A stretch of 64,000 nucleotides of DNA from Ignavibacteriota bacterium (GCA_963843525.1 CAWJKM010000007.1:405188-469187), one strand, 5' to 3'. Shown: positions 30,833-50,881, counted from the first letter of the stretch. Notes: a model not told the origin generated them from the sequence alone. Translations and numbers: made by a program.

Positions 30833-30875
30833 CCGACGCTGCCCTCCCGTGCATTCCAGAATACTGTGAGTCCCT

Positions 30876-33800
30876 ATGTCTACCGCATTGACACGCATTC
30901 GGCTGTCTCCTCTTCTCTTCTCGCTGGTGGTGCTCCCTGCATTGTGCCTGGCCGGATTCAAAGAATCGGTCGAGCAGACTCTTCACCTCGTCCAGGCATT
31001 TGAGGGCTGTGCGGAAGGATATGGGTCGACGAGTATCGGAGCGACACTTCAATACCCCCGGATCCGATCGGACGCTCCCAACGCGCTGATCTCCCGTGCC
31101 ACCGATGGTAAACAAGTGATTGAATGGTTGACAGGGCCGGTCCCGGCCACGCGAAGCACTGAGTCGGTTTCGTTTGTGGTGCGTGCAGGGATCTACGGAC
31201 AGGAAGAGCCGGGGAAGAAGTTCCATCTCTTCGTGGATGGCGCGGAACGCATCGCGTTTTCAACGTCGAATCGTGACCGATGGGTGATCAAGGGGGAAAA
31301 TGGAAGTGAACTCTTTTTTGAAAGCGTGATGAAAGATCAATTCGGCGATCTGTTCGGATACCTGCGCCTGACCATCCCCTCCAGTTGGACGACCGGCGAT
31401 GCACCTGTGCGATTGAAGATCGTCGGTGAAAATGAAGGGTCGTCGGCATGGGTGATGATCTACCAGGATTCGACGGCCTTATCGTATCTACGGGAGCAGG
31501 CTCTTGAACAGGCATGGTGCCGGGTTGACGTGGACCTGTCGGGCCCGGAGGCTCTCGCTACATGTATGGCTTCTTCCTCCTGGGTGGGAAGGCATATGAC
31601 CTGGCAGGTCGGATCGCAGGCTCCGGGAAGCACCGAGCTCACTTCTCACGACAAGTTTGCCCGCGCCGTCTTTCACATGGAATTGAAACCGCATGATGCT
31701 TTGACATTGTCCGTGGGAATGGACACGCTGTTTCGCGGGGCAATCTCCGGGGATAGCCTTACAGAAAGTGCGATTTACCCGAAGAGACTGGTGACCCGCC
31801 GGTCTTCCTCCGGAGTCCAATCGTGGAGCGTGGAGTATCAATCGACGTATATGCCCGAACTGGGAACGTCGCTCCTCGAACTCTCGGACGAATCCAGGGG
31901 GAAGGGGAGCCAGTATCTGATCATCTCATCCCACCAGGATATCGCCTGGATGGACACACCCACTGAATGCGTGAAGGAGAGGGATGAGAAGGTTATCACA
32001 CCGGCGCTGTCGTTGCTTCATGATGATCCCCGGTTTTGCTTCGACCTCGAAGACGTCCTCGAACTCAGGGAGTACCTGGGCCGTCATCCTGATCGAAAGG
32101 ACGAGATCTCCGGATTCATCAAGCAGGGGAGGCTGGGGATCGGCGCTTCCTTCAACATGCCGTATGAAGATCTTTGCTCCGGCGAAATGCTGGTCCGGCA
32201 GTTCTATGCCGGGCTCCGCTGGTTGAGAAAGAATCTCCCCGGCTGTGACAGCCGAACGGTATGGAATCCCGACGTCCCCGGAAGGTCCACCCAGGCTCTC
32301 CAGGTGATGCACAAAGCCGGCGTGCGATTCCTGCTGATCAGCCGGCAGAAGCCGGGTCTCTATGACTGGAGCAGTCCGGATGGCTCGAGCGTCCTTGTTT
32401 TCAGTCCCGGTCACTATGCCCTGTTCAACGAACGAACGACTGGGAAACCTTTCCCTGAAGCAGCGGCCTATCTTGCATCTTTTGACCGGCAATGGGAAGC
32501 AGCGGTCAACAAAGAGAGCACAAACACGCCGGTCCTCTCGATGTCGGACATGAGCGCTCCGGTCCGGTACGATGATTTCATCGATACCTGGAACGGGCTG
32601 CATTCCATTGCGGTCGCCGGCGGGAAGTCCCGTCCTCTCACCCTCCCGTCTCTTCACTATTCAACCGCAAGCGCTTTCTTCTCCGCCGTCGAACGGGAAG
32701 ACGCGCCCCGCCCAACCATCCGGGGCGAGCGTCCGAACATCTGGTTGTATATTCATGGACCGACGCATCACCGTGCGATAGACGCAAAGCGGCAAGCTGA
32801 TGGATTCCTGACTTCCGCGGAAATATTCTCGACTGTCGATGGGTTGCTGGAGCATTCCTTCGCCCGGTACCCCCAGGAAGAGCTGACCAACGCCTGGGAA
32901 GCACAACTCTATCCGGATCACGGTTGGGGTGGGAAGAACGGCGAAATTACCGATAGCACGTTCCGTGCGAAATTTGAGTTTGCCAGGGATGTGGCCCGGC
33001 GGATCACCACCTCGGCGACGAACGCGCTCGCATCGCGAGTGAAAACTTCGTCCCGCAAAGGCGTACCGCTGGTGATTTTCAACTCGCTTTCCTGGAAGAG
33101 GAGCTCGCCGGTGGAATGCACGGTGCAGTTTCCCCCGGCCCTCTTTCGAGGAAGTTTCTCTCTGTCGACCTCCTCCGGGAAATCCGTCCCGGTGCAACTG
33201 CTTTCGATAACGAGGAACTCGGATGGATCGCTCAAATCGGCGCGGATCGTTTTCGTTGCGGAAAATGTGCCCTCAATAGGCTATTCGACGTACTATGTTC
33301 ATTCCGTCAAGGGAGTCCCCGCGCTTGCCGGAAAAGACACTGCTGCTCCTCCATTGTTGGAAAGCGCCGATTACCGGCTTGCCCTGAGTGCCGGGGGGAT
33401 TCAGCAAATTTATGACAAGGACCTGCGCAGGAACCTTCTTTCAACCGGGAAGTTTCTCGGCGGCGAGCTCTTCACCATGCAATCGGTGGGCGAAGATGCA
33501 GGCGAATGGAGCGAGCCGCAACAACCGACCATGGAGGGGTTTGATCAATTGCAGCGCCACAAACCGGTGTGGCGATTGGTGGAGACAGGCCCCGTCAGGC
33601 AAGTGGTGGAACTCCGGCAAGATATCGACCACGCGACTGTGCACCAACGGCTTCTCCTCTACAACCATCTGAAGCAGCTGGATGTTGAGACAGCCCTCCT
33701 CCGGTGGGATGGGACGAAATACCGCGAGTTTCGTCTGGCGTTTCCGGTGGCGATGCCAAAAGGCCAGGTCACCTACGAAGTTCCCTTTGGCACTGTTGAG

Positions 33801-34454
33801 GTGGGGAAGGACGAACTACCGGGTGCTCCCGGAGAGCGGTATACGCAGGATGCGCGGCAGATCAGGCCGAGAAGCATTCAGAACTGGATCGATGTTTCGG
33901 ATAGCACAGCAGGGATAACAATCAGTTCCAGCGTTGCTGTGTGGGACTACAAGGATCCGACAGACCATCCGGAAGCGATGCCTGTGCTTCAACCCGTGCT
34001 CCTTGCATCACGAAAGAGTTGTCACTGGGAAGGGAACTGGTATCTTCAGAAAGGAGATCACTCTTTCCGGTTCTCCCTGACCTCACACAGTCGGGGCTGG
34101 AGGATGGGTCGACAGTTCGGGGTGGGGGCAAATACACCGCTTTTCGTCGCAGCCGGACCGTTTCAGAACATAAGAAAGACACTGCCTGAACAAGAGAGTT
34201 TTTTCTCTCTCGATTCTCAAAACGTTCTTCTCAGCACGATGAAAAAGGCGGAAGACGGCGATCGCGTGGTCCTGAGACTGGTTGAAGAGGAAGGGAGGGC
34301 GGGAAAGGTAACCCTGAATTTGTTTGGGCGGGTTCATCGGGCCGAGCAGACGAACATCATTGAGAATGATGGAAAAGTCGTACCTGCGGAGGGCAAACAT
34401 CTTTCGCTGGATATCGCAGGGCACGCCATCGAGACATTTGTGCTGGACTTCTGA
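30876..34454 (+). CDS. GH38-like glycoside hydrolase (putative alpha-mannosidase) with an N-terminal accessory domain. Paralog of 44938-48318.
   Basis: LIISSHQDIAWMD fits the GH38 N-domain metal-site pattern H-x-D-x-x-W. About 1.2 kaa and secreted. Its N-terminal approx. 200 aa are clearly homologous to the other paralog (KKFHLFVDGAERIAFS...DLFGYLRLTIP vs VRKFHLSVNGSPLVAFS...DLFGYAFLTLP). Confidence 0.45.
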   Translation: MSTALTRIRLSPLLFSLVVLPALCLAGFKESVEQTLHLVQAFEGCAEGYGSTSIGATLQYPRIRSDAPNALISRATDGKQVIEWLTGPVPATRSTESVSFVVRAGIYGQEEPGKKFHLFVDGAERIAFSTSNRDRWVIKGENGSELFFESVMKDQFGDLFGYLRLTIPSSWTTGDAPVRLKIVGENEGSSAWVMIYQDSTALSYLREQALEQAWCRVDVDLSGPEALATCMASSSWVGRHMTWQVGSQAPGSTELTSHDKFARAVFHMELKPHDALTLSVGMDTLFRGAISGDSLTESAIYPKRLVTRRSSSGVQSWSVEYQSTYMPELGTSLLELSDESRGKGSQYLIISSHQDIAWMDTPTECVKERDEKVITPALSLLHDDPRFCFDLEDVLELREYLGRHPDRKDEISGFIKQGRLGIGASFNMPYEDLCSGEMLVRQFYAGLRWLRKNLPGCDSRTVWNPDVPGRSTQALQVMHKAGVRFLLISRQKPGLYDWSSPDGSSVLVFSPGHYALFNERTTGKPFPEAAAYLASFDRQWEAAVNKESTNTPVLSMSDMSAPVRYDDFIDTWNGLHSIAVAGGKSRPLTLPSLHYSTASAFFSAVEREDAPRPTIRGERPNIWLYIHGPTHHRAIDAKRQADGFLTSAEIFSTVDGLLEHSFARYPQEELTNAWEAQLYPDHGWGGKNGEITDSTFRAKFEFARDVARRITTSATNALASRVKTSSRKGVPLVIFNSLSWKRSSPVECTVQFPPALFRGSFSLSTSSGKSVPVQLLSITRNSDGSLKSARIVFVAENVPSIGYSTYYVHSVKGVPALAGKDTAAPPLLESADYRLALSAGGIQQIYDKDLRRNLLSTGKFLGGELFTMQSVGEDAGEWSEPQQPTMEGFDQLQRHKPVWRLVETGPVRQVVELRQDIDHATVHQRLLLYNHLKQLDVETALLRWDGTKYREFRLAFPVAMPKGQVTYEVPFGTVEVGKDELPGAPGERYTQDARQIRPRSIQNWIDVSDSTAGITISSSVAVWDYKDPTDHPEAMPVLQPVLLASRKSCHWEGNWYLQKGDHSFRFSLTSHSRGWRMGRQFGVGANTPLFVAAGPFQNIRKTLPEQESFFSLDSQNVLLSTMKKAEDGDRVVLRLVEEEGRAGKVTLNLFGRVHRAEQTNIIENDGKVVPAEGKHLSLDIAGHAIETFVLDF

Positions 34455-34555
34455 TTGCCGGGCGACACGATACTCACAAAAGGGGGGTTTGCCATTTCTG
34501 ATTAAACGGTTCTCCATGCCGGTGGTCTAATGAAGAAACGAGGAGCATCGGCACA

Positions 34556-37363
34556 ATGCGTGCACCTCTCATCTTCATGAGTTGCATTCTTTTTTCCTTC
34601 CCTTCGTTTGCCCGGGATTCCCCTCTTCGGGGGCGTGTCGTCGACGAGAAAAACACTCCGCTTCCCGGGGTGCATGTGCGCCTCGTAACCATCCTGGACA
34701 CTTCCACGGCAATCTTCGCAACGAGCGGACTGGATGGGAGTTTTCAGATCCCAGACCTCTCCTCCGGAAGCTACCGCCTCGACATTACGGCCATCGGACA
34801 CAGATCCATCCAACAAGTTGTCAGAGTGCAGGGGAGGGCCATAGACCTGGGGACCATCGTTTTAGCCGAGAGTCCAATCCAGCTTGGCGAAGTCCTTATC
34901 GAACGGCGGCCGCCGGCCGCCGTGTTAAACGGTGACACGACGGAATTTCTCGCCGCATCGGTGAAGGTCAACAGGGATGCGACAGCCGAGGATATGCTCA
35001 CAAAATTGCCCGGAATCACCGTCTCAAACGGAACGGTGAGCCAGGGGGGAGAAAACGTCCAGCGGGTTCTCGTGGACGGAAAACCCTTTTTCGGGGACGA
35101 TCCGACCCTCGCGCTCCGGAATCTTCCCGCCGAAGTTGTTGACAAGATCCAGGTGTTCGACCAGATGAGCGATCAGGCGCAATTCACCGGATTCGACGAC
35201 GGCCAATCGGTGAAAGCATTGAACATCATCACCCGCCGGCGGGGAAGGGATCTCAATTTCGGCAAGGTCGCGACAGGTTACGGGGACAACCAGCGATACG
35301 AGGTGGGAGGGAACGTCCATCTGTTCGATGGCGATCGAAGGATTTCTGTGCTGGGGCTCTCCAACAACGTCAACGATCAGAACTTTTCGATGCAGGACAT
35401 CCTTGGCGTGATCTCGTCGAACAATCAAATGCGCACGCCGGGGATGGGCCCACGCGGACGCGGGCCGGGCGGAGGCGGAGGATTCCGGCAGGCCAGCCCC
35501 TTCGGGCGGTCGGGCGCCGGCGGCAACCCCTCCTCACTCGTTGGTCAGCAGCAGGGTATCAATACGACCTCCATGTTCGGAACGAATTACTCCGATAGTC
35601 TTGCGTCGAATCTCTTCATGCAGTCTTCGTATTTTTTCAACCGTATCGACAACACCAATGAACAACTGGACAGGAGACAGTACCTCCTGGGAGGAGATTC
35701 GATCGGTCTTTATCATCAGACCTCCAACGCCGACGGGAAGAATTTCAATCACCGGATCAACAGCAGGATCGAGTACGCCCCTGATCCATCTGATGTGCTC
35801 ACGGTTCTCCCGCAATTGTACTTCCAATCAAACCGCTCATCGAACATGCTGGACGCGATCACGGCGCTGAATTCCACGGCGTCCCTTTCGCAAAGCGTTA
35901 CTGATGGCTCGAATTCCGGGTACAATCTCTCCGGCCACGTGGTCTACCGGCACAAATTCGATCTCCCTGGTCGTACGATATCACTCGACGTCGGAATGGC
36001 GGCGAATCGGAAAGTGTCGGTGGGACTCCTTTCGGCGTCCGATCAGTACGAAGGGACCTCGGGGATCAATGACTCCCTCGCGCAGCGCTCCGACTACCTT
36101 TCCAATGTGAACACGGTGAGCGCGAACATTGTCTACACCGAGCCTGTGAGCGTTGACGATCTCGTGGAACTCCTGTACACGCCGTCTCTCACGAAGAGTA
36201 CCGCCGACAAGAACACCTTGGATCTCGATCGATTGGTGGGGATGTATTCAATCCCGAATGCCGCTCTTTCGAACGCCTATGCGAACAACTATCTGACGCA
36301 AAGTGCGGGTGTCGGGTATCGTTGGCGCGGGACGGCGATGAACCTGATGACGAACTTGTCGTATCAGGTAGCCCAGCTGCGGAGTGACAATATTCTCCCC
36401 GGGGCGGACCTCTCCAAGAGATTCGGATCCTTTCTCCCCAGCGCGTTATTCATCTCTTCGATGGCGGACCACCGGACGCTCAGGATCTTCTATCGAACAT
36501 CGACCCAGTCTCCCAGTGTGACACAACTTCAGCAGGTCGTTGATAATTCCAATCCTCTCCTGGTCACCACAGGCAATCCGGACCTCATACAGTCGTATAC
36601 TCATTCACTTCTTGCGCGGTATGCGCTCACCTCGGCGGACAGGGTTCACAGCATGTTCCTGCTTCTTGCCGGGACGTATACATCGCACTACGTTGCCAAT
36701 GCGACACTCATCCCTTCGCGCGACACACTTCTTGCCGGAGGCACGGTTGTGCCTGTGGGGAGCCAGTTGACCTACCCGGTGAACTTAAACGGCTACTGGA
36801 ACGTCCGTTCGTTCTTCACGTACGGATTACCGTTCAGCCTGCTGGGCAGTACATTGAACCTCAATAGCGGCGTCACTTTTTCCCGGACTCCTGCACTGCT
36901 CAACGCCGTCCGGAGCACCGGAAACTCGGTCGCCTTTACTGAGGGGTTTGTCCTGGGAAGCAATCTCAGTGAAGACTTTGATTTCACCATTTCCTATTCC
37001 GGCAATTATACACTCTCACGGAATTCACTGCAACCAAATGCCAACAGCAACTCCTATTCTCACACGGCGTCGCTCCGGTGGGTATGGACGTTCTGGAATG
37101 GCTTTGTCTTGAGAAACGATGTGACTAATGCGCTGACGAACGGGCTTGCAGAGGGTTTCAATCAAAACTCAGTCCTCTGGAATGTCAGTCTGGGGAAGAA
37201 ACTCTTTGCAGAGGAGAGGGGAGAGATCAAGATGGGAGTGACGGACCTTCTGGGGCAGAACAAGAGCGTTAATCGTTCGGTCACCGGCACCTACATCGAC
37301 GACACCTCCAATGAAGTGCTGACAAGGTATTTTTTGGTAACGTTCACCTACACGTTGCGATGA
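34556..37363 (+). CDS. TonB-dependent receptor-like outer-membrane protein (CarbopepD_reg + plug + barrel) with an internal Gly/Arg-rich low-complexity segment
   Basis: RGRVVDEKNTPLPGVHVRLV...DGSFQIPDLSSGSYRL is the CarbopepD_reg domain. The plug is TTEFLAASVKVNRDATAEDMLTKLPGITV. The low-complexity GMGPRGRGPGGGGGFRQ segment is internal, and the protein ends in beta-barrel strands. Confidence 0.7.
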   Translation: MRAPLIFMSCILFSFPSFARDSPLRGRVVDEKNTPLPGVHVRLVTILDTSTAIFATSGLDGSFQIPDLSSGSYRLDITAIGHRSIQQVVRVQGRAIDLGTIVLAESPIQLGEVLIERRPPAAVLNGDTTEFLAASVKVNRDATAEDMLTKLPGITVSNGTVSQGGENVQRVLVDGKPFFGDDPTLALRNLPAEVVDKIQVFDQMSDQAQFTGFDDGQSVKALNIITRRRGRDLNFGKVATGYGDNQRYEVGGNVHLFDGDRRISVLGLSNNVNDQNFSMQDILGVISSNNQMRTPGMGPRGRGPGGGGGFRQASPFGRSGAGGNPSSLVGQQQGINTTSMFGTNYSDSLASNLFMQSSYFFNRIDNTNEQLDRRQYLLGGDSIGLYHQTSNADGKNFNHRINSRIEYAPDPSDVLTVLPQLYFQSNRSSNMLDAITALNSTASLSQSVTDGSNSGYNLSGHVVYRHKFDLPGRTISLDVGMAANRKVSVGLLSASDQYEGTSGINDSLAQRSDYLSNVNTVSANIVYTEPVSVDDLVELLYTPSLTKSTADKNTLDLDRLVGMYSIPNAALSNAYANNYLTQSAGVGYRWRGTAMNLMTNLSYQVAQLRSDNILPGADLSKRFGSFLPSALFISSMADHRTLRIFYRTSTQSPSVTQLQQVVDNSNPLLVTTGNPDLIQSYTHSLLARYALTSADRVHSMFLLLAGTYTSHYVANATLIPSRDTLLAGGTVVPVGSQLTYPVNLNGYWNVRSFFTYGLPFSLLGSTLNLNSGVTFSRTPALLNAVRSTGNSVAFTEGFVLGSNLSEDFDFTISYSGNYTLSRNSLQPNANSNSYSHTASLRWVWTFWNGFVLRNDVTNALTNGLAEGFNQNSVLWNVSLGKKLFAEERGEIKMGVTDLLGQNKSVNRSVTGTYIDDTSNEVLTRYFLVTFTYTLR

Positions 37364-37552
37364 GAGGCGTACGGGATATCTCTATGGAAATGGGAAAAGT
37401 TCTGATGCAAGATCTGCGTGAGCTGCGAGAGAATCAGTAGCCAGAGGCATGTGCACAAGGGGTGGGGCATCGATCGTGTGCAGAGCCGGCTCATTTCTAT
37501 TGACTCTTAGATTAGGAATTCGTAAGGTTCCTGCCAATTTAATTGTTTTCGT

Positions 37553-38179
37553 ATGCCCAGGAAACGGTTGCTCGGTATGGCCTTCTGCGACACCCAGTCT
37601 CTTCGCCTCTTTGAAGTCCTCAGAGAGCAGGCTTCGTTCACTGAGGACGAAATCCAATGCTTCCAGTCGTTCCTGGATCTGAGGGTCTTCAAAAAAAAGG
37701 AGCACCTCCTCCGCGCAGGAGAAATATCCGGGGCGACATCCTACGTGAAGAAGGGGTGCCTCCGTCGGTATGTTATCGATGAGCATGCCAAAGAAGTAAT
37801 CATAAATTTTGCAGTGGAAGACTGGTGGATCGGCGACCTGGAGAGCTTTCATTTCCAGCGGCCCAGCCCATACTACATCCAGGCTCTTGAAGAGAGTGAA
37901 TTGCTCCTCCTCTCCCGGCAGAATTTTTTGCGCGTGTGCGAGGAGTTGCCGAAATACAAAGTCTTCCATGAACGGAAGGAGCAACGCTCCCATTACGCTA
38001 CCCTCAAACGGCTCTCCATCATCTCGGGGGGGACCCCCGAAGAGAAATACCTCCTGCTCATGAAACAGCAGCCGCAGCTGTTTCAGCGCATCCCCCTCCA
38101 CTATATAGCCTCCTATCTCGGCATTGAACCGGAATCGCTCAGCCGTCTCCGCAGGCGCCTCGCCGAAAAGAAATCCTAA
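37553..38179 (+). CDS. Crp/Fnr-family transcriptional regulator
   Basis: N-terminal cNMP-binding domain (KKEHLLRAGEISGATSYVKKGCLRRYVIDEHAKEVII) and C-terminal HTH (HYIASYLGIEPESLSRLRRRL). An antisense ORF (37382-38101) is judged spurious. Confidence 0.75.
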   Translation: MPRKRLLGMAFCDTQSLRLFEVLREQASFTEDEIQCFQSFLDLRVFKKKEHLLRAGEISGATSYVKKGCLRRYVIDEHAKEVIINFAVEDWWIGDLESFHFQRPSPYYIQALEESELLLLSRQNFLRVCEELPKYKVFHERKEQRSHYATLKRLSIISGGTPEEKYLLLMKQQPQLFQRIPLHYIASYLGIEPESLSRLRRRLAEKKS

Positions 38180-38255
38180 CCATCGTCAATGACTTGCCGT
38201 CCATCGGCCTGTACCTTTGATCCATCAACCAACAACACCATCAAAGGGAGGTCCT

Positions 38256-39326
38256 ATGGATACCGCAACACTTGCTTCGAAGGTCGTAGTCAGCCCGGCC
38301 ACTCCGGTCAGCCCCGAACATATCCTGAAACTGGGGATGGGGTATTGGGCCTCAAAAACCGTCCTGACCGCAGTGCAACTCAAGCTGTTTACCATTCTTG
38401 CGCAAAAGCCGCACAGCGCAGGCGAAATCCGGGAGCGTCTGGGACTGCATGAACGTTCGTATCTTGACTTCCTGGACGCACTGGTAGCATTGAAACTCCT
38501 GAAACGAAAAGGGCTGGGAGGCGAAGCAATCTATTCCAACACGCCGGAGACCGATACTTTCCTCGACAGGAACAAGCCATCCTACCTTGGCGGGATTCTG
38601 GAAATGAGCAACAACCGCCTGTACAAGTACTGGAACGATCTCGAAGAGGGTTTGAAAACCGGGCTCCCGCAAAACGAATTGAAGGATTCTCACTCAGAAT
38701 CGCAATTCAACGATTTCTACAGCAATCCGGAGTCGCTGGCCGAGTTCATGAGGGCCATGGCCGGAATACAAATGGGCGCTTTCATCTCTTTGGCCCAGCA
38801 ATTCGACTTCTCACCGTACAGGAGATTTGTCGATATCGGAGGTGGAAACGGATCGCTTTCCATCCAGGTGGCCCTGCACAATCCTCAGATCGAATGCACG
38901 ACGTTCGACTTGCCGGTGGTGGAGCCGGTTGCGAAAGATACGATAGACCGGTTCAGCCTTTCCACAAGAATTCGCACGGCCGGAGGCGACTTCTTCAACG
39001 ATGACCTTCCGCAAGGCGATGTTGTCGCGATGGGAAATGTCCTCCATGACTGGAATGAGAAAGAGAAACTCTTGCTCATGAAGAAGGCGTTTGACCTCCT
39101 GCCCGCCGGCGGGGCCTTCGTGTGCATAGAGAGCATTATTGACAACAACAGAAGTGAGAATGCTTTCGGGCTCTTGATGTCCTTGAATATGCTGATCGAG
39201 ACCAAGGGCGGTTTCGATTATACATTCAATGATTTCGATCGATGGGCTCACCAGTCAGGATTCCACCGCACGGAATGGCTGCCCCTCGCCGGACCGACCA
39301 GCGCAGCGATAGCGTACAAAGCATGA
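38256..39326 (+). CDS. Class I SAM-dependent O-methyltransferase (O-MTase family 2-like)
   Basis: Strong SD (AGGGAGG) before the ATG at 38256. SAM motifs FVDIGGGNGSLSIQ, DLPVVEP, GDFFNDDLPQGDVVAMGNVLHDW. N-terminal dimerisation-type winged helix. Confidence 0.75.
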   Translation: MDTATLASKVVVSPATPVSPEHILKLGMGYWASKTVLTAVQLKLFTILAQKPHSAGEIRERLGLHERSYLDFLDALVALKLLKRKGLGGEAIYSNTPETDTFLDRNKPSYLGGILEMSNNRLYKYWNDLEEGLKTGLPQNELKDSHSESQFNDFYSNPESLAEFMRAMAGIQMGAFISLAQQFDFSPYRRFVDIGGGNGSLSIQVALHNPQIECTTFDLPVVEPVAKDTIDRFSLSTRIRTAGGDFFNDDLPQGDVVAMGNVLHDWNEKEKLLLMKKAFDLLPAGGAFVCIESIIDNNRSENAFGLLMSLNMLIETKGGFDYTFNDFDRWAHQSGFHRTEWLPLAGPTSAAIAYKA

Positions 39327-39368
39327 AGTCCTGAGCTGCGGACTTCTCTGTGCGTGAAGTGTCTTCGC

Positions 39369-39408
39369 GCCCGCATACCCCGAAGGTGTGCGGGCTTTGT
39401 TTTCTGTT
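39369..39408 (+). terminator. Rho-independent terminator after the O-methyltransferase
   Basis: GCCCGCATACC-ccgaa-GGTGTGCGGGC (one G-U pair) followed by TTTGTTTTCTGTT. Confidence 0.6.
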
Positions 39409-39525
39409 CGGGTGCTTGATTCGGCGCGCGTGGCGGGCTCCACTGATTGTGAATTCTCTCATGCGTTCTTGACAATTGGTTTTCCTTCCGCTATTATTTC
39501 GCAGGAACGCTTGCAGAGATTTATC

Positions 39526-40017
39526 ATGCTCGATCAAAGTTGTCGATACGAGGTGCCAGCGATCCACTTCATGTCAGAGAAGGCCTATCTCATGAATATC
39601 AGCATCCTGGACGCCAGCAATTATTTCAAGGGTGTTCTTCTCCTGATCCGGAAGGACCGGAAAATCACCGAACCGGAAGTTGAACTTGTGAAGCATATCG
39701 GCAAATCCCTCGGTTTTGAACCGGAATTCTGCACGAATGCGATCAACGAAATCCTTGAAAACAGGTTTATTATCGACTCCCCCCCGGTGTTTTCCACGAA
39801 GGAATTAGCCCTGAAATTCGTCAAGGACGGCCTTGCTGTGGCATTTTCCGATAATAGACTCGACCCCGCCGAGGAACAATGGCTCAAAGAAACGCTCGAG
39901 AACAATGGATTCGACGAAGAGGTATTCCCACGGGAACGAAAGATGGCCTCTGCACGACAAGTATTTCCAGAGAAACTGGAAGTCGATGACCTGACCGTTG
40001 AACATTCGAAAACGTGA
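39526..40017 (+). CDS. Hypothetical protein with two TerB-like/DjlA-N-like helical repeats
   Basis: Two about 55-aa repeats (YFKGVLLLIRKDRKITEPEVELVKHIGKSLGF and ALKFVKDGLAVAFSDNRLDPAEEQWLKETL) resembling the TerB co-chaperone fold. The start is chosen downstream of the terminator; the ORF is open from 39388. Confidence 0.3.
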   Translation: MLDQSCRYEVPAIHFMSEKAYLMNISILDASNYFKGVLLLIRKDRKITEPEVELVKHIGKSLGFEPEFCTNAINEILENRFIIDSPPVFSTKELALKFVKDGLAVAFSDNRLDPAEEQWLKETLENNGFDEEVFPRERKMASARQVFPEKLEVDDLTVEHSKT

Positions 40018-40026
40018 AAGACGACA

Positions 40027-40380
40027 GTGATTTCTAAGGTAAATATTGCGGAACAAGCGGGCGCGATTCACGAACACTGGCGTCCCGTCACCATCGCCTC
40101 CTTGAACGGACAAGAAGTGAAGATTGCGAAATTCAAAGGGGAATTCGTATGGCACTCCCATAAGGATGAGGACGAACTTTTCCTGGGCGTAAAGGGATAC
40201 TTTCGGGTGGAATTCCGTGATCACGTCGCGGAGATCGGACCCGGAGATCTGATTGTCGTCCCGCGAGGCGTCGAACACCGGACAATTGCTGAAAATGAAG
40301 CGGAGGCTTTGCTCTTCGAACCGGCAGGCGTCAGGAACACGGGAAACGTGTTCCACCCGACACTAACAGCCCCACAGTAA
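40027..40380 (+). CDS. Cupin-domain protein (cupin_2)
   Basis: Two-His cupin motifs: HSHKDEDELFLGVKGYF ... GDLIVVPRGVEHRT. Confidence 0.6.
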   Translation: MISKVNIAEQAGAIHEHWRPVTIASLNGQEVKIAKFKGEFVWHSHKDEDELFLGVKGYFRVEFRDHVAEIGPGDLIVVPRGVEHRTIAENEAEALLFEPAGVRNTGNVFHPTLTAPQ

Positions 40381-40563
40381 ATTGGAGAAAAAGAAAAGTT
40401 TCCAGGGTCTACCTCGCGGAATTTTCGGATGGGTTGCGCCGCACCAGACGGGCCTCTTGGTGCCTTCTGGTCGAATCAACTTTGCCGGATCCTTTTGTGC
40501 ATACCCCACAGATCCCACCGCTTTTAACCGATTGCGGGCCGTCGTCGACCCGCGCTTCATAGC

Positions 40564-42315
40564 TCAAGAATTCGTCCTCACATAAGCCTTGATGGTTGCA
40601 CACTTCTTTCTGTTGCTTGACCCGGCAGGCCGGATCGTGTAATTGCCGACGGAGGCGGGGACGATGAACGTTTCCGCATAGTGGACTTGAAATGGGGGAA
40701 AAGCATTGGTCGGACTTTCGACGACGATTTCATCGCCTTCGACAAGACAGAGGACATTCACGCCGCCACCGGTCTCATGGGAGACCGTACCGGTGAACCA
40801 GTGCCGGCGCGTTTCAATAAACTCCCGTTCGTGAAGGCCCGTTCGTTCTTCCACCCAGCCATCGCCGCTTGCGACTCTTTCCACCCGGTTTGCCAGGTTC
40901 TCCTCCGTCCAGAGTGTCGTCCGCTCCCATTGAATGGACCGTTTGCCATGATCGATATTGATGGGTCTCGGCTTTCCATCGAGTCCCAGGCGTCCCCAGT
41001 CCCATAACTTAAACGTAAAGATGTATGGTGTCGCGCTGATTTCCAGTACCACGCTGTTTTTCCCGGAGCAATGAATTGTGCCTGCGGGAATCAGGTAATG
41101 TTCGTGCTTTCGCACCGGCCAGGTCTGTACGTAGCGTTCTGCATCAAAAGGAACGGATCCCTTCTCCGCTTCCACCAGTCCCGCGATCATCTCGTCCGGA
41201 TCGATCCCGTCCCTGAGCCCCAGGTACACGACGGCGCCATCTCGGGCCTCCATGATGTAGTAACTTTCGTCCTGCGTGTACTGGATGCCGAATTGCTCCC
41301 GGATATATTCCGTCAGCGGATGGACTTGAAGGCTGAGATTGCCTCCGTCCATGGTGTCGAGGTAATCGAATCGAATGGGGAATTCATCACCAAATTGCTC
41401 ACGCACAGCCTCCCCGAGCAGAGATTGAGGATCGAAGAGCACCAGATTGAGTGAAGGGATTTCGATAGTCGTTCCGCCGAAACTGAGCAGCAGGCTGTTC
41501 TCCTCGGGGACGCAATTGAAGCACCATGCGTAGTTGCTGACGGATCTATCGAGGTTGCAGATTTTCTTCAGCCATTGCCCTCCCCATGGGCCGGGATCAA
41601 AGAAAGGGACCACGCTGAACGGCCGCTGCAAGGCCTGTTTCAGCCCCTCGCGAACGCTCTCCCCGTCGATGAGTTTTGGAATCGACCGATCATTCGTATC
41701 GAGAAGGAAGTCCCAGCGCGTCATCAACTGCTTCTTCAGCCTGTCGCACACCCTCCAATCGACGAAGTACCCCTGCTTGTAGAGGAGCATCCAGTCTTCC
41801 GTATCTTTGTTGGAGACCCCGAGGTTGCTTATTTCGTGCCTCCTCATCCTGAGCTGGATCTCCCACCGCGCCATATCGGCATAGACCAGGAGATCAAACT
41901 CCTCGGGAATGATCGCCGCGCCGGATCCAACGACGAGAAGGATTCCGTCATGATGGGAGGAGATCCTTTGTCGGGCCGCCTGGAGTTTGTCAGGTTCGAA
42001 GAAATCTTCGATGGTCAATCGGGTGAGACGCCCGAAGAGGCGGTCGTCCGTCACATCCGGGTGGACCAGATTCTTCACTTCGCTGATGTCCCGATAGAGG
42101 CTCGCCGCAGTGAGAAGAAAGTCCGGAACCAACCCCTCGACCAGGGCTCGTGTGACCTCTTCTTCGAGGACGCCGTGGTAGTATTCCACAACGACGACCT
42201 TTTTCTTCCCGGGGAGTACCGCGATGCGCTCCCGAAGCACGCGAATGATCCTGTCCCAACCCTCTGCAACCTCCGTGTCACGTTGCACGTCGATCGCCGG
42301 ATATTTCTGGAACAT
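40564..42315 (-). CDS. manA: Class I mannose-6-phosphate isomerase domain protein, long form with N-terminal extension
   Basis: LSLQVHP is the PMI type I zinc-site motif, and YLIPAGTIHCSGKN is the second PMI block. The protein is 583 aa, about 170 aa longer at the N-terminus than canonical ManA. Confidence 0.65.
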   Translation of the reverse strand: MFQKYPAIDVQRDTEVAEGWDRIIRVLRERIAVLPGKKKVVVVEYYHGVLEEEVTRALVEGLVPDFLLTAASLYRDISEVKNLVHPDVTDDRLFGRLTRLTIEDFFEPDKLQAARQRISSHHDGILLVVGSGAAIIPEEFDLLVYADMARWEIQLRMRRHEISNLGVSNKDTEDWMLLYKQGYFVDWRVCDRLKKQLMTRWDFLLDTNDRSIPKLIDGESVREGLKQALQRPFSVVPFFDPGPWGGQWLKKICNLDRSVSNYAWCFNCVPEENSLLLSFGGTTIEIPSLNLVLFDPQSLLGEAVREQFGDEFPIRFDYLDTMDGGNLSLQVHPLTEYIREQFGIQYTQDESYYIMEARDGAVVYLGLRDGIDPDEMIAGLVEAEKGSVPFDAERYVQTWPVRKHEHYLIPAGTIHCSGKNSVVLEISATPYIFTFKLWDWGRLGLDGKPRPINIDHGKRSIQWERTTLWTEENLANRVERVASGDGWVEERTGLHEREFIETRRHWFTGTVSHETGGGVNVLCLVEGDEIVVESPTNAFPPFQVHYAETFIVPASVGNYTIRPAGSSNRKKCATIKAYVRTNS

Positions 42316-42333
42316 ACGGTCCTTTCCGTTTTC

Positions 42334-43284
42334 CTAAAGAGATCCCCGGAGACTTTCTGAGAGAAGATGCGCGACGCCGAGAAGGGCGGCGTTGTCGATG
42401 TCCTGGGCTTTTACGACATGGACCTTCCCCCACGGCGTCCATGCACGCCGGGCGACCTGGTCGGCAATGAAGGGGATAATTCTCTCCGCACTGCGCATCA
42501 TCCCGCCACCGATGATGGCTCGTTCGGGGTCATAGGCGTGGATGAGATTGATCACACCGGCGCTCCACGCCAGGAGGCTGCGATGGACAAGGCGCTGGGA
42601 GAGAGGATCATTGTTTGCGGCGAGACGGAAGAGCACCTCATAATCGATGGTGGGCGCTTTTGAAAGGCCACTGGTGGCGAAATCCTTCTCGGCTACGGCA
42701 AGTGAAGCCAACCGCCAGGAAGAGGCCTCGGATTCCACGCACCCGATATTGCCACAGTTGCAGGTTTGCCCCTCGTAAGCGATCGTGAAGTGTCCGCCGA
42801 GGCACCCGGCCTGGAAATGCTTCCCGCGAAGTAACTCCCCCTCCATGAGTGCGGCGGCGCCGACTCCTGTACCGAGTGTGACCATCACGAGATTGTCACA
42901 TCCCTTGCCGGAACCGAATTGCCACTCGCCTGCAAGCGCTGCCCGGGCATCGTTTTCCAGGAAGAGAGGGAGACCGAATGTGCTATCCGACCATTGTCGA
43001 AAATCAAATCCCACGATGTCGTTATATTTTTGATTGATGGAGAGCACCCGCGCGACCTTCGAGTCCACGATTCCGGGGACAGACAACCCAATCCCCCGGA
43101 TATCCCCGCGTGAAAATCGTGGATCGTGAAGGAGTTCGACGAGCATGGGCTCGAGAGCCGTCAGCCGCGGAAGGAACCCGCGATCGGAGAGTGCCTCAAC
43201 GACGCGACTTTCGAGAATCTTCTCCTGCTCCACAACGCCGATCTTTATCCTGGTACCACCGAGGTCGAGTGCAAGAATTTTCAT
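42334..43284 (-). CDS. ROK-family sugar kinase (putative mannokinase/glucokinase)
   Basis: MKILALDLGGTRIKIG is the actin-like ATPase N-terminus, and CNCGNIGCVESEAS is the ROK zinc-binding motif. The start is taken at the internal ATG (43284); the ORF is open to 43389. Confidence 0.8.
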   Translation of the reverse strand: MKILALDLGGTRIKIGVVEQEKILESRVVEALSDRGFLPRLTALEPMLVELLHDPRFSRGDIRGIGLSVPGIVDSKVARVLSINQKYNDIVGFDFRQWSDSTFGLPLFLENDARAALAGEWQFGSGKGCDNLVMVTLGTGVGAAALMEGELLRGKHFQAGCLGGHFTIAYEGQTCNCGNIGCVESEASSWRLASLAVAEKDFATSGLSKAPTIDYEVLFRLAANNDPLSQRLVHRSLLAWSAGVINLIHAYDPERAIIGGGMMRSAERIIPFIADQVARRAWTPWGKVHVVKAQDIDNAALLGVAHLLSESLRGSL

Positions 43285-43524
43285 TGTTTCCGAAGTCTGT
43301 ACGTGCAATGGAAGAATGTCCGGCGATCTGAGGGCATTGGAGATCTCAGAGCCGTACGTTCTCAAAAATCTCTTGGACGGTGAGTACAAAGCTAGCCACT
43401 ATTCTGTATATTTCCAAGAATCAAAAGGGCGGGGGGAACTATGATCGGGACGGGACCATTCCTGCAACGGACTTTCGGCAGCAGGTTGTGGGACCGTGAA
43501 AAGCTTTGACCATGCGGAGAGGTT

Positions 43525-44922
43525 ATGAACGGAAAACGAAATTGGATTCTTATTGGAGCTTCTCTCACAGCGGCATTCGGCGGTTTTCTCTTCGGCTTCG
43601 ACACGGCGGTTATTTCCGGGACGCTCTCTTTCGTCCAGCAGCAATTCCACCTCACCACTCTTGAGGAAGGGTGGTATGTGAGTTCAGCTCTTGTGGGATG
43701 CATCGCGGGGGTCGCCATTGCCGGAACTCTCAGCGATCGATTCGGCAGGCGCAAGGTGCTGCTCCTCTCCTCATTCTTGTTCCTGCTGTCGACTGCGGGT
43801 TGCACGATCGCTCCGGCGTTGCCCACTTTGATCGCATCGCGTCTGGTCGCGGGAATGGCCATCGGCGTGGCTTCCATGCTTGCTCCGCTCTACATCTCCG
43901 AGATTGCGCCCGCTCAACGCCGCGGTATGCTTGTGGCCCTCTACCAATTTGCGATAACGCTCGGGATCCTCTGCGCATATTTCTCCAATGCCTGGGTTGT
44001 CGACCTCTCAAACCGCTTGAGTCTGCAATCAGGGCTTTGGAAATTCGTTTATGTCGACGAAGTCTGGCGAGGAATGTTCGGGAACATGCTGGGTCCGAAC
44101 ATCGTGTTTATCCTTCTTCTCCTGTTCATACCCGAGAGCCCGCGGTGGCTCATCGCTCACGGACGCGCAGACCAGGCACGGGCCATCATGGAGAAGATCG
44201 TTGCTCCGGGATCATTGGAGTCAGAATTCCGCCAGATCTCCGACGCTATACTTGACGAACAGCCTTCCTTTCTGCAGCTTTTCCAGGCCGGGATGCGGAA
44301 GCCGCTCCTTGTCGGTCTTCTTCTCCCGATGTTCTCTCAGCTGAGCGGCATTAACGCGATCATCTATTACGGCCCGAAAATCCTCAGCGAAGCGGGATTC
44401 TCAATCAGCGATGCGCTCGGCGGGCAGGTGTCGATAGGAATCGTCAACGTGCTTTTCACGGTTCTCGCCATTCAACTGGTGGATCGTTGGGGGAGGAAAC
44501 CGTTACTCCTCATCGGGATCAGCGGGGTGATCCTGTCTCTGTCTGCTGTTGGCTTTCTTTTTGCCCTCGGGATATCGCATGGCTGGCTTCTTATCGGCTT
44601 CATCATGTGTTTCATTGCTTGTTTTGCGTTTTCTCTCGGTCCAGTGACCTGGATCGTGATCTCAGAGATCTTCCCGACGCACATCCGTGGACGGGCAATG
44701 GCGCTCGCAACATTCGCAGTGTGGGGGACGAACGCCGTTGTCGGACAGCTTTTCCCCTGGCTGTTGGAGCATCTCGGGTCTTCCGGGACCTTCTGGACGT
44801 TCGCGATTATCTGCCTTCCTTCCATCCCTTTCCTCGCCAAAGTGTTGCCGGAAACGAAGGGAAAGACTCTTGAAGAGGTGGAAGCATCCTTTCATTCGCA
44901 GGCCCCGTTGAAAGCCCTGTGA
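43525..44922 (+). CDS. MFS sugar porter family transporter
   Basis: GFDTAVISG, GRRKVLLLSS, PESPRWL and PETKGKTLEE are classic sugar-porter signatures. 12 predicted TM helices. Confidence 0.85.
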   Translation: MNGKRNWILIGASLTAAFGGFLFGFDTAVISGTLSFVQQQFHLTTLEEGWYVSSALVGCIAGVAIAGTLSDRFGRRKVLLLSSFLFLLSTAGCTIAPALPTLIASRLVAGMAIGVASMLAPLYISEIAPAQRRGMLVALYQFAITLGILCAYFSNAWVVDLSNRLSLQSGLWKFVYVDEVWRGMFGNMLGPNIVFILLLLFIPESPRWLIAHGRADQARAIMEKIVAPGSLESEFRQISDAILDEQPSFLQLFQAGMRKPLLVGLLLPMFSQLSGINAIIYYGPKILSEAGFSISDALGGQVSIGIVNVLFTVLAIQLVDRWGRKPLLLIGISGVILSLSAVGFLFALGISHGWLLIGFIMCFIACFAFSLGPVTWIVISEIFPTHIRGRAMALATFAVWGTNAVVGQLFPWLLEHLGSSGTFWTFAIICLPSIPFLAKVLPETKGKTLEEVEASFHSQAPLKAL

Positions 44923-44937
44923 AGAAATGCAGCCGAA

Positions 44938-47900: not shown

Positions 47901-48318
47901 TATCGATAAGGGTCCGGCGAAAATGCAGCTTCGCCCCGTTTGCTGCCCGGACGGTCCATTCAGATTGTTCAATTTTCTCCGGTCTGGAAAACGCAACAAG
48001 TGGAGATCCATTGACGGAAAGATGGAACTTCCGCACTTCCATATTTGCGCCGATCCCAAAAATCCATGCAAAGGTCGCCTCTTCGCCGTGAAATTGTGAT
48101 GGCACCGGGCTGGTTTCCCATTCGATGTATTCAGTCGAGTCCAGGGAGCGCACGAGTAATGCAGCGTTGGCGTCGGGCTGACAGGAACGATACTCGATGA
48201 CCCCTCCATGGATGGACCGCACATAACCGCGAAGTGGAATCTGCTCCTCGCCGTAAGAAACATGAAGGGCGGGAAGGGAGAAAAGCAGGCAGAGCAGGAT
48301 GGAGCAGTGGAATTTCAT
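44938..48318 (-). CDS. GH38-like glycoside hydrolase (putative alpha-mannosidase), paralog of 30876-34454
   Basis: YLVEHAHTDIGYT fits the GH38 N-domain H-x-H-x-D-x-G pattern. Signal peptide MKFHCSILLCLLFSLPALHVSYG with the ATG at 48318; the ORF is open to 48387. The N-terminal domain is homologous to the other paralog. Confidence 0.45.
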   Translation of the reverse strand: MKFHCSILLCLLFSLPALHVSYGEEQIPLRGYVRSIHGGVIEYRSCQPDANAALLVRSLDSTEYIEWETSPVPSQFHGEEATFAWIFGIGANMEVRKFHLSVNGSPLVAFSRPEKIEQSEWTVRAANGAKLHFRRTLIDKNDDLFGYAFLTLPASLLERGKPLRIRVNGESAGSQVWYMTFQYGLADTVMIIPQEALLREGKNGLQPVSVDIIHLRDGAEVHLKSPEGAEVHSKLQFGFNRLVLKLRNTDAERTVAIGVGFDNTGMKSYSFLQKPIRKWTVYLVEHAHTDIGYTRPQTEILPEHLRFIDYALDYCDQTDSLPDDAKFRWTCEASWPVSQYLNNRPPEQIERFKRRVREGRIEATGMLFNMSELPDENAYVTFLKPILQFKKLGIPVQTGMQDDVNGVAWCLVDYCHDIGIKYLTMGENIARALRPFDVPTPFWWESPSGNRILVFRADHYMTGNFMGIERGKLDIVEPDMFEYLNNLERHAYPFDRIAVQYSGYFTDNSPPSTAGCNVIEAWNRKYLWPHLRSATDHEFPEYIEKTHANDLRTVRAAWPDWWTDGTGSAPRETAAARRTQAEMISTQGLLAMARILGVNIPAGMLDHNSSIMENLLFYDEHTFGAAESITDPRAENSEVQWAEKSAYVWDAVKNSGLAREYALGLLQDKLFHSTVPTITIFNTLSWKRSGLHTVYIDNQVLPSDREFTILDAHGKEVSAQLIAKRADGNYWGLWVEDVPPMGYKTLRIEVSGTPAAPEIQSNAAPSVLENAFYRVVLDPTRGTVKDIYDKELRKDLVDTSSPWQAGQFIRETLTNRQQLEQYRMDSYSRSTLKDVRIKSWSEGKIWKSVVFAGRSEACEGPDGVTCEVRLYNNAKRIEIRYSIMKLPITDPEALYVAFPFSLPGATIHYDVQGGTVVPGISQIPGSSSDWQTVQNFAAARNPSGQIIIGSDEAPLMQFGDINTGKFQRIARIDRPSVFSWVSNNYWTTNFLAEEDGELKWSYYLTSTPDTSDSYATEFGWGARVPFVSRVLPAGAGHGSAMDASFLKVLPSNILLVGATPSGDNTGIILQLREVDGKQTHLPLSGVLENARVRSADQVNVLGEKIRRLDDALDFKPLEVKFLELAQ

Positions 48319-48631
48319 ACGAGATGCCTTTGATGTGATACCGGGATCTCTGCAGCGGGCGGACCTTCGAGACATCGATGCGTGCACCTCACGGCGAGGT
48401 TACGCCTTCAAGAATACTGGCGGAGGCAAAAGGTTTGAGTATGTTTGAGAACGCTGCCGGCCGTTTGCAGGCGTACGATATTGTAATCACCTCTCCGCCG
48501 AAAATCAATTTTCTTGGGTAACCCTTTGAACCGACTGTGCGCATCTCCTTGAATGTTACGATTTTTGTTTCAACATTCATGGACAGCCCGCTGAAATCCT
48601 TCTCGAATGATTCCGTTTCAGAGAGTTCTTC

Positions 48632-50803: not shown

Positions 50804-50837
50804 GAAATCACGATGGAGGTTTTCTTGTCTTTGGCCC

Positions 50838-50867: not shown

Positions 50868-50881
50868 GCGGGAGTAAAGAG

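Follow-up and report, generated by a model that had tools for sequence, protein, structure and literature searches.

Characterized members of GH38 are alpha-mannoside hydrolases. Solved GH38 structures include those of Streptococcus pyogenes SpGH38 (PDB 2wyh; 905 residues, without an N-terminal extension) and Bifidobacterium longum Bl_Man38B (7ufs), as well as Ams1/MAN2C1-type enzymes (PDB 6lz1, 7dd9, and 5jm0), in which ~270 residues lie N-terminal to the catalytic barrel. Type I phosphomannose isomerases (PMIs; PMI_typeI_cat; TIGR00218 manA), such as B. subtilis YvyI (PDB 1qwr), are proteins of ~320 aa with a cupin core. In Bacteroides, alpha-mannan and N-glycan PULs combine SusC/SusD with GH92, GH76, GH125, and GH38 (e.g., BT3774; PMC4978465).

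The gene cluster described here resembles these PULs in its predicted TonB-dependent import and periplasmic exo-mannosidases. It differs from them in having neither a SusD-like gene nor a SusC-type pairing; instead, its receptor has as partners a small lipoprotein and a second barrel (OMP_b-brl_3), and no GH76, GH92, GH125, or GH18 gene was found in the window (i.e., the whole 64-kb stretch of DNA that was analyzed). Its two GH38 proteins, GH38-A and GH38-B, are 17 to 20% identical to SpGH38 and Bl_Man38B, from which they are distinguished by signal peptides, by a distal His motif of DHG or EHT rather than HD, and by a 320-aa two-domain N-terminal extension that is present in no solved GH38. 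The best sequence-profile match was to the Ams1/MAN2C1 type (E = 1e-32).

Gene content of the cluster

Two large secreted ORFs were present where the first-pass annotation of this DNA had placed them (Table 1). That annotation had listed a barrel receptor, a Crp regulator, a PMI with an LSLQVHP motif, a ROK kinase, and an MFS porter between them, and all of these were found there on the basis of Pfam searches and NCBI names. Three genes in the same interval, encoding the O-methyltransferase, the TerB-like protein, and the cupin, were missing from its list, and the canonical TonB-dependent receptor and the 172-aa lipoprotein lie outside its span, just upstream of GH38-A. All genes of the cluster had already been annotated by NCBI. 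Genes unrelated to mannose catabolism are interspersed in the proposed mannose-catabolic island.

Table 1. Features of the cluster (positions counted from the first nucleotide of the window)
Feature	Position	Strand	Basis or remark
Lipoprotein, 172 aa, lipobox LFGLGG/C (cleavage before C)	28128..28646	+	Read from sequence; overlaps start of receptor gene
TonB-dependent receptor, CarboxypepD_reg + Plug + barrel	28634..30832	+	Pfam: Plug, 97.5 bits; TonB_dep_Rec_b-barrel, 144 bits
GH38-A, secreted alpha-mannosidase-like, 1192 aa	30876..34454	+	Pfam, alignments
Module 1 of GH38-A, ~160-aa beta-sandwich	30999..31475	+	Predicted model, pLDDT 91.8; without Pfam model
Second outer-membrane barrel, CarboxypepD_reg + OMP_b-brl_3, 935 aa	34556..37363	+	Pfam; NCBI "outer membrane beta-barrel protein"
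Crp/Fnr-family regulator	37577..38179	+	cNMP_binding, weak HTH_Crp_2; NCBI name
Class I SAM O-methyltransferase	38256..39326	+	Pfam: Methyltransf_2 + dimerisation domain; NCBI name
TerB-like protein, 141 aa, role unassigned	39592..40017	+	Weak TerB match (Pfam); gene call in L009
Cupin_2 protein, 117 aa	40027..40380	+	Pfam; NCBI name
Long-form class-I-PMI-like protein, 583 aa, without signal peptide	40564..42315	-	PDB 1qwr alignment; NCBI name
ROK-family sugar kinase, 316 aa	42334..43284	-	Pfam: ROK, 154.7 bits; exact deposited protein
MFS sugar porter, XylE/GlcP-like proton symporter	43525..44922	+	Pfam: Sugar_tr, 392.9 bits; TIGR00879
GH38-B, secreted alpha-mannosidase-like, 1126 aa	44938..48318	-	Pfam; exact match to deposited protein P0121

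The TonB-dependent receptor ends 43 nt before GH38-A, and its position is kept in the closest syntenic relative (L006). The lipoprotein, for which a Pfam search returned no match, is a candidate surface partner of this receptor; in L006, L007, and L002, the same spot before the receptor is occupied by a small gene (172, 178, and 121 aa, respectively). For the second barrel, Pfam reported no Plug match. A Plug-like stretch at approximately residues 115 to 230 was seen by eye only. Among the window ORFs of at least 220 aa, Pfam detected no SusD-family protein, and the adjacent SusC-like/SusD-like pair of a PUL was not found. Pfam likewise detected no glycoside hydrolases besides GH38-A and GH38-B in the 64-kb window, and scanning the entire window for Rfam families and tRNAs gave no matches.

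A 13-mer, TTCMAGAATACTG, is present upstream of both GH38 genes and has exactly two copies in the window, where its near-matches are statistically unusual. As a common operator it was rejected, because it points in opposite directions with respect to the two genes and is missing ahead of their orthologs in L006 and L002. It is left unexplained, outside the model proposed below.

The two GH38 enzymes

GH38-A comprises a signal peptide, a helix, module 1 (residues ~42 to 200), a second beta-sandwich (~213 to 325), and the GH38 core (348 to 1192). GH38-B contains module 1 (~25 to 185), a shorter linker domain, and the GH38 core from residue ~280. The ORF of GH38-B extends to a GTG at 48387 (1,149 aa), and the deposited protein begins at the ATG at 48318. 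The latter is also the start in the first-pass annotation.

Both proteins matched the Pfam models for the catalytic (beta/alpha)7 domain at the N-terminal side, Glyco_hydro_38N (GH38-A, 88.3 bits; GH38-B, 100.6 bits; gathering cutoff, 25), and for the C-terminal beta-domains, Glyco_hydro_38C (56.9 and 42.3 bits, respectively), and GH38-A also matched Glyco_hydro38C2 (41.7 bits). They share 24% identity end to end (E = 6e-58). The N-terminal domains had been proposed to be homologous, and they do fall inside this alignment (residues ~45 to 200 of GH38-A against ~47 to 210 of the 1,149-aa ORF). Five residues are invariant in each type, namely, H353, D355, D466, D558, and H682 among 32 A-type sequences and H288, D290, D403, D507, and H621 among 26 B-type sequences. 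These correspond to the H-x-D motif, the Asp of NPDVPG (A) or QDDVNG (B), the Asp of SDMS or TDNS, and the His of DHGWGG or DEHTFG, and they align with HxD, WLPDTFG, GDGGGG, and QFHD of Ams1. The alignment thus places the metal-site H-x-D, the nucleophile Asp, and the distal His at canonical GH38 positions in both paralogs; D558 and D507 are the putative acid/base residues, and in the A family this column aligns with the Asp of the Ams1 GDGGGG motif. The GH38-like metal-site motif claimed in the first-pass annotation therefore stands, since Pfam places both paralogs in GH38 rather than in another family, their H-x-D matches that of Ams1, and the downstream Asp matches that of WLPDTFG.

The residue following the distal His is G in GH38-A and T in GH38-B instead of the D of the canonical HD, and because of this difference an altered specificity is possible. 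A more radical departure, in which one or both paralogs form a neofunctionalized GH38 subfamily with another glycone or a non-hydrolytic role rather than an alpha-mannosidase, appears very unlikely. The rearranged His motif (DHGWGG and DEHTFG), an identity of only 15 to 20% to characterized GH38s, and the database name of many B-type homologs (merely "hypothetical protein") would be in keeping with it, but the metal-ligand and presumed catalytic positions are all invariant and aligned with Ams1, the overall GH38 fold is matched over the complete core, and the activity common to characterized members is the hydrolysis of alpha-mannosides.

Hydrophobic Sec-type signal sequences were read by eye at the N termini of both enzymes, and it is from these only that we infer a periplasmic location. 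Pfam reported no T9SS tail domain in GH38-A or GH38-B. A T9SS-secreted surface enzyme was rejected, as the GH38s have no Por_Secre_tail, whereas a neighboring BNR protein has one. The only NCBIfam match was to an MngB-type mannosylglycerate hydrolase; this assignment was rejected because the scores (65 and 24 bits) were far below the cutoff of 1138 and because MngB is cytoplasmic, whereas the GH38s of the window carry signal peptides.

N-terminal beta-sandwich module

The first-pass annotation had held that the extra N-terminal domain is not a standard GH38 module and had suggested structure prediction as a check. The predicted model consists of two beta-sandwich domains (pLDDT, ~92), the second being smaller and Ig-like. 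Consistent with that view, the extension has no Pfam model, no counterpart among solved GH38 structures, and no close neighbor in the PDB libraries.

Module 1 occurs in 390 protein clusters (E ≤ 1e-3); an alignment of the module contains conserved G/Y/R/W/D..D.FG/W positions, and its architectures are not confined to mannosidases. Among CAZymes, it accompanies GH38, GH92 mannosidases (as an insertion in the catalytic domain), heparinase II/III-like proteins, and CE2_N-containing proteins; its other partners, non-CAZyme hydrolases among them, include S9/esterase-like, beta-lactamase-fold, peptidase-like, PD40, and DUF3604 proteins. It is a discrete, independent fold appended to carbohydrate-active enzymes, as a CBM would be. 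Its PDB neighbors are only weak and include the beta-jelly-rolls of CBM6, CBM27, and CBM35 (target-normalized TM-scores, ≤0.49; identity, ≤15%), from which it differs in its lack of a Pfam model and in its beta-lactamase-fold, S9/esterase-like, and DUF3604 partners. Literature searches for a GH38/GH92-associated CBM and for PDB codes 7UFR to 7UFU returned nothing relevant.

Module 1 is most likely a noncatalytic binding module that aims the enzyme at its substrate or at the cell envelope, and it is probably undescribed. Its ligand is not necessarily mannose, because its partners include esterases, beta-lactamase-fold proteins, and peptidase-like proteins. A mannose-specific CBM, a reading prompted by the association with GH38 and GH92, was weakened by the esterase, beta-lactamase-fold, PD40, and DUF3604 partners. 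More tentatively, module 1 could be the founding member of an undescribed family that has moved among at least six kinds of secreted hydrolases (GH38, GH92, heparinase II/III-like, beta-lactamase-fold, S9/esterase-like, and DUF3604) in the FCB group and neighboring phyla and whose members recognize the same ligand, be it a glycan with mannose residues or a shared component of the cell envelope; we put this at somewhat below an even chance. If true, module 1 would stand for a novel CBM family or for a novel type of module that retains proteins in the periplasm or at the outer membrane.

Candidate pathway genes

The PMI-like protein shares the cupin core and the VHP/E/H ligands of type I PMIs and differs from them in its size and in an additional N-terminal domain of ~230 aa that precedes the core. 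It carries LSLQVHP, DESYYI, and GTIH in the core, and residues 230 to 454 align with the B. subtilis enzyme (E = 6.9e-9), including the metal-ligand positions VHP, E(S/C)(Y/W)YI, and GT(I/L)H. In NCBI and JGI records, it bears the name class I mannose-6-phosphate isomerase. Its scores were nonetheless below the curated cutoffs (PMI_typeI_cat, 14.6 versus 22 bits in Pfam; TIGR00218, 22.5 versus 116.2). The family has at least 8,000 matches, with 63 to 70% identity among the matches listed, and our search found no characterized member of this long form. Because it is so abundant and conserved, the family may be of a housekeeping nature (e.g., GDP-mannose supply) rather than dedicated to catabolism.

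The ROK kinase contains the ATP motif DLGGT (DxGxT) and the zinc motif CNCGNIGC (CxCGxxGC), with no match to a DNA-binding/HTH domain; its best NCBIfam matches were glucokinase-type models, below cutoff. The MFS porter belongs to the MFS sugar porter family (TC 2.A.1.1; TIGR00879, 370.9 bits versus a cutoff of 237.8). Since the kinase matches are of the glucokinase type and the porter is XylE/GlcP-like, the substrate of both could be glucose or some other hexose. A complete route from mannoside via mannose and Man-6-P to Fru-6-P, as first proposed, is plausible and permitted by the gene set, but its completeness is qualified by the sub-cutoff scores of the PMI-like protein and by the sugar of the ROK and MFS proteins, which cannot be read from sequence.

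Comparison with other genomes

In L006, in which GH38-A is 65% identical, the TonB-dependent receptor, GH38-A, the second barrel, the TerB-like protein, the cupin, the PMI-like protein, the ROK kinase, and the MFS porter are kept in synteny, and the Crp regulator, the methyltransferase, and GH38-B are absent. The TerB-like counterpart there is a 153-aa protein with a faint TerB match in the same position; a cupin similar to that of the cluster also lies near GH38-A in L007. In L002, the receptor, the outer-membrane barrel, and GH38-B are directly adjacent, with none of the remaining cluster genes. The bracketing of the island by two paralogs, emphasized in the first-pass annotation, is thus correct for this window, but it is a lineage-specific mosaic that differs in both relatives.

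A-type GH38 genes are widespread, with >580 loci at the species level. In approximately 14 of 80 species-level loci of other genomes, the A-type GH38 and an MFS sugar porter are no more than 500 bp apart; these loci come from Cytophagales, Prolixibacteraceae, KSB1, and a Planctomycetaceae bin. A PMI is near an A-type GH38 in 3 of 52 long loci, and a ROK gene is in 2 of 52. A long PMI-like paralog (36% identical), which retains the VHP, E, and H motifs, is encoded inside a GH38-GH29-GH38-PMI-GH38A operon of a Prolixibacteraceae genome (L037), and another adjoins GH38A in L039.

These data bear on whether the GH38 genes merely neighbor the PMI/ROK/MFS block without a functional relationship to it, the block providing general hexose uptake and GDP-mannose supply and the GH38s relying on partner glycan-degrading enzymes elsewhere in the genome. 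The ubiquity and conservation of the PMI-like family, the L002 arrangement without PMI, ROK, or MFS genes, the low PMI and ROK counts near A-type GH38s, and the interspersed methyltransferase, Crp, TerB-like, and cupin genes all favor this explanation. Against it are the adjacency of MFS porters to A-type GH38s across many unrelated lineages, the PMI-like paralog within the Prolixibacteraceae operon, and the synteny of the block in L006, and we consider it improbable, albeit worth weighing. The MFS and PMI adjacency elsewhere gives some independent support to the mannoside route.

Homologous GH38s in other genomes cluster with GH3, GH20, GH29, GH116, GH123, and additional GH38 copies, so the enzymes may naturally act on a complex heteroglycan instead of on plain mannan. 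In a specific form of this idea, GH38-A and GH38-B would trim mannose off bacterial exopolysaccharides or off the N-glycan cores of glycoproteins from algae, plants, or fungi, not off alpha-mannan, with complementary linkage specificities and in cooperation with fucosidases and hexosaminidases encoded elsewhere. The GH29 fucosidases and other enzymes of these clusters, the direct A/B adjacency that recurs in L001, L015, and L022, and literature linking GH38 to the breakdown of N-glycans, yeast mannan, and xanthan argue in its favor; the lack of any further glycoside hydrolase in the 64-kb window argues against it. We judge this form to be slightly less probable than unrelated neighbors. It is compatible with the mannoside-scavenging explanation, from which it differs solely in substrate.

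Proposed mechanism and significance

On the basis of the gene set, we favor, with moderate confidence, a non-PUL mannoside-scavenging cluster that uses TonB-dependent receptors without SusD in an uncultured bacterium of the Bacteroidota. Alpha-mannose-containing oligosaccharides would enter the periplasm via the lipoprotein, the TonB-dependent receptor, and the second barrel, and mannose would be freed there by GH38-A and GH38-B acting as divergent, retaining, metal-dependent exo-alpha-mannosidases that probably cleave different linkages. The MFS proton symporter would then import mannose, the ROK kinase would convert it to Man-6-P, and the long-form class-I PMI-like enzyme would convert Man-6-P to Fru-6-P. 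The Crp-like regulator and the O-methyltransferase would be a later insertion, dispensable for the pathway.

The cluster itself would represent routine sugar scavenging, i.e., one more TonB-receptor-linked mannoside gene set in an uncultured Bacteroidota lineage. Its wider relevance concerns two large, widespread, and biochemically uncharacterized GH38 subfamilies, which recur side by side and beside MFS porters, and a long-form PMI-like family that escapes curated models but is linked, in two or more lineages, with GH38 operons. The mobile beta-sandwich module, itself unannotated, could reasonably be a new CBM or retention domain; with its characterization, the CAZymes of environmental Bacteroidota, Ignavibacteria, KSB1, and related phyla would be better annotated.

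Two divergent GH38 paralogs

The first-pass annotation had described two large GH38-like open reading frames (ORFs) on opposite strands, and the coordinates and Pfam scores bear this out. Glyco_hydro_38N matched GH38-A and GH38-B at 88 and 101 bits, respectively, and this domain and Glyco_hydro_38C exceeded the Pfam gathering threshold in both proteins. The deposited start of GH38-B is 48318 (exact match, P0121) and differs from that of a longer GTG-initiated ORF extending to 48387. The two proteins aligned over their full length (24% identity; E = 6e-58), including the stretch lying between signal peptide and catalytic domain, so that the claimed homology of their N-terminal domains also held. 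Judged from their sequences, GH38-A and GH38-B are distant paralogs. This full-length paralogy, together with the Pfam GH38 matches, means that the original observation was correct.

Active-site residues were placed by HMMER alignment to solved Ams1 chains. SSHQDIAW and WNPDVPGRS of GH38-A aligned with GHCHIDTAW and WLPDTFGYS of Ams1, the Asp of SDMS with the Asp of GDGGGG, and the His of DHGWGG with the His of QFHD; the H-x-D motif thus aligns with the GH38 catalytic site. In alignments of 32 A-type and 26 B-type homologs, H353/D355, D466, D558, and H682 (A type) and H288/D290, D403, D507, and H621 (B type) were invariant. Alongside this conservation, we consider it very improbable that the proteins form a GH38 offshoot with a non-mannosidase function.

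Features of the window around the two GH38 genes
Feature	Position	Strand	Remarks
Hybrid sensor, 1474 aa	2351-6775	+	Reg_prop/Y_Y_Y, PAS, HisKA, HATPase_c, two receiver domains
zf-HC2/HEAT anti-sigma-like and DUF4097 genes	within 23083-27873	+
DUF5916/CBM9 protein	25204-27873
Lipoprotein, 172 aa	28128-28646	+	Lipobox LFGLGG↓C; overlaps receptor gene start
TonB-dependent receptor (TBDR)	28634-30832		Canonical; just upstream of GH38-A
TTCMAGAATACTG, copy 1	30854-30866	+	10 nt upstream of GH38-A start
GH38-A, 1192 aa	30876-34454	+	Glyco_hydro_38N, Glyco_hydro_38C, Glyco_hydro38C2
OMP_b-brl_3/CarboxypepD_reg barrel (OMP)	34556-37363
Crp-like regulator	37577-38179	+
O-Methyltransferase	38256-39326	+
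TerB-like protein, 141 aa	39592-40017
Cupin, 117 aa	40027-40380
PMI-like protein, 583 aa	40564-42315	-	LSLQVHP; aligned to 1qwr
ROK kinase	42334-43284		Without HTH domain
MFS sugar porter	43525-44922		Above TIGR00879 cut-off
GH38-B, 1126 aa	44938-48318	-	Glyco_hydro_38N, Glyco_hydro_38C
TTCMAGAATACTG, copy 2	48407-48419	+	About 89 nt upstream of GH38-B start, opposite orientation relative to GH38-B
BNR/Sortilin-type protein (T9SS sorting tail), DUF4249 protein, TBDR	48632-54216	+, -, -	Beyond GH38-B, in this order

Gene content of the cluster

Among the genes reported between the paralogs, the OMP barrel, Crp-like regulator, ROK kinase, and MFS porter were confirmed, while the O-methyltransferase, TerB-like protein, and cupin had been missed. 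The phosphomannose isomerase (PMI) assignment stood by alignment to the Bacillus subtilis type I enzyme (1qwr; E = 7e-9; VHP, Glu, and His positions matched) but not by the Pfam and TIGR00218 cut-offs, below which the protein scored. NCBI and JGI name it class I mannose-6-phosphate isomerase. At least 8,000 matches were listed at 63 to 70% identity, and the family is therefore very widespread and conserved. The family splits deeply into two or more groups of paralogs (36% identity). The protein carries an additional N-terminal domain of about 230 aa; residues 1 to 230 had no Pfam or PDB sequence match and were strongly conserved at the same identity across thousands of homologs.

Among ORFs of ≥220 aa, the window had no SusD-family Pfam match; it contained no glycoside hydrolases besides GH38-A and GH38-B and no Rfam elements or tRNAs. 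The 172-aa lipoprotein, which had no Pfam match, may be a SusD-independent surface partner for this receptor type; small genes occupy the same place before the receptor in loci L006 (172 aa), L007 (178 aa), and L002 (121 aa) of other genomes.

The hybrid sensor resembles the hybrid two-component glycan sensors of Bacteroides and had no AraC-type HTH match. The zf-HC2/HEAT and DUF4097 genes precede the cluster both here and in L006, in which the upstream region also encodes an ECF sigma factor; the DUF5916/CBM9 protein is missing from L006. The TBDR-GH38-A unit may be regulated by the ECF system. Exactly two copies of the 13-mer TTCMAGAATACTG are present in the 64 kb (7 matches at ≤2 mismatches; shuffle mean, 1.6). 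The 13-mer was not preserved ahead of the orthologous genes in L006 and L002 and may therefore represent chance or a local operator.

Comparison with related loci

An identical sequence is present in the public Bacteroidota MAG GCA_049587695.1, in which every gene is already named. The closest syntenic relative, L006 (GH38-A 65% identical), retains the lipoprotein, TBDR, GH38-A, OMP, TerB-like, cupin, PMI, ROK, and MFS genes and lacks Crp, the methyltransferase, and GH38-B. The Crp/O-methyltransferase pair looks like an insertion into the cluster. In L002 (GH38-B 63% identical), TBDR, OMP, and GH38-B are directly adjacent, and GH38-A and PMI/ROK/MFS are absent; an equivalent BNR/Sortilin-DUF4249-TBDR trio flanks GH38-B there. 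The proposed island bracketed by two paralogs is thus present as a layout in the window but, by gene content, is a lineage-specific mosaic, since one relative lacks GH38-B and the other GH38-A.

Of 80 species-level loci with an A-type GH38, about 14 (Cytophagales, Cyclobacteriaceae, Prolixibacteraceae, KSB1, and one Planctomycetaceae bin) have an MFS sugar porter gene no more than about 500 bp away from it. Sunxiuqinia, Draconibacterium, and Puteibacter are among the relatives with an A-type GH38. In a Prolixibacteraceae MAG (L037), a 36%-identical long PMI-like paralog (600 aa) with the same motifs lies in an operon-like array (739-13564) after GH38 (886 aa), GH29 fucosidase, and GH38 (998 aa) genes and before a 1185-aa GH38 of the A type. 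The PMI-like product looks cytoplasmic, although its gene lies among those of glycosidases. Such a paralog also adjoins an A-type gene in L039, and A- and B-type genes are direct neighbors in three loci (L001, L015, and L022). As far as gene order tells, MFS-GH38A, PMI-like-GH38, and A/B adjacency recur independently in other genomes. That the GH38 genes lie beside a housekeeping hexose module by coincidence seems unlikely to us.

The mechanism that we moderately favor as the most likely one would lead from mannosides to Fru-6-P. Mannose-containing oligosaccharides would enter the periplasm by TonB-dependent import and undergo exo-hydrolysis there by the two secreted GH38s, which would differ in linkage preference. 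Mannose would then be taken up by the MFS porter (proton symport), phosphorylated by the ROK kinase, and converted from Man-6-P to Fru-6-P by the long PMI-like enzyme; the N-terminal module would probably hold substrate or position the enzymes. In other genomes, these GH38s accompany GH3, GH20, GH29, GH116, and GH123 genes, a hint that their substrate may be complex glycans that contain mannose and not plain mannan. A complex glycan in place of mannan, a reading compatible with this mechanism, was given a low probability.

The first-pass interpretation is therefore partly supported and largely reasonable. The finding is an ordinary one: it adds members to established families, arranged as a mosaic in an already annotated MAG.

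A mobile N-terminal module

The N-terminal beta-sandwich (module 1; about residues 42 to 200 of GH38-A and 25 to 185 of GH38-B) was searched as residues 30 to 215 by exhaustive HMMER against 1.84 billion representatives, yielding 390 clusters at E ≤ 1e-3 (198 at E ≤ 1e-10). The best 150 of the 390 comprised GH38 proteins (61 clusters), short proteins of <450 aa that were mostly fragments (63), beta-lactamase-fold (9), GH92 (7), and heparinase II/III-like (2) proteins, and 8 others of ≥450 aa, including S9/esterase-like alpha/beta-hydrolases and one protein each of the PD40/DPPIV-like, DUF3604, and CE2_N kinds. In GH92 proteins, module 1 is an insertion within the catalytic domain (e.g., P0332, residues 476 to 631). 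A multiple alignment revealed a signature kept across architectures (G-Y...G...Y, L..R, W.T..P, F.W, F.L.V, D...D.FGY, and G....W.M.F). R74, W84, D154, D158, and W192 are among the conserved residues of module 1.

From this distribution, module 1 is a mobile module that behaves like a putative accessory binding module. Its presence in two unrelated mannosidase families (GH38 and GH92) is suggestive; a strictly mannose-specific role is argued against by its other partners. It also heads P0248, P0275, P0279, P0318, P0327, P0339, and P0344, which carry beta-lactamase-fold, S9/esterase-like, PD40/DPPIV-like, or DUF3604 domains, so that its ligand may be one that many hydrolases of the periplasm or the secretome share, instead of mannose. 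This unannotated module, a candidate new binding-module family, is the sole lead worth pursuing.
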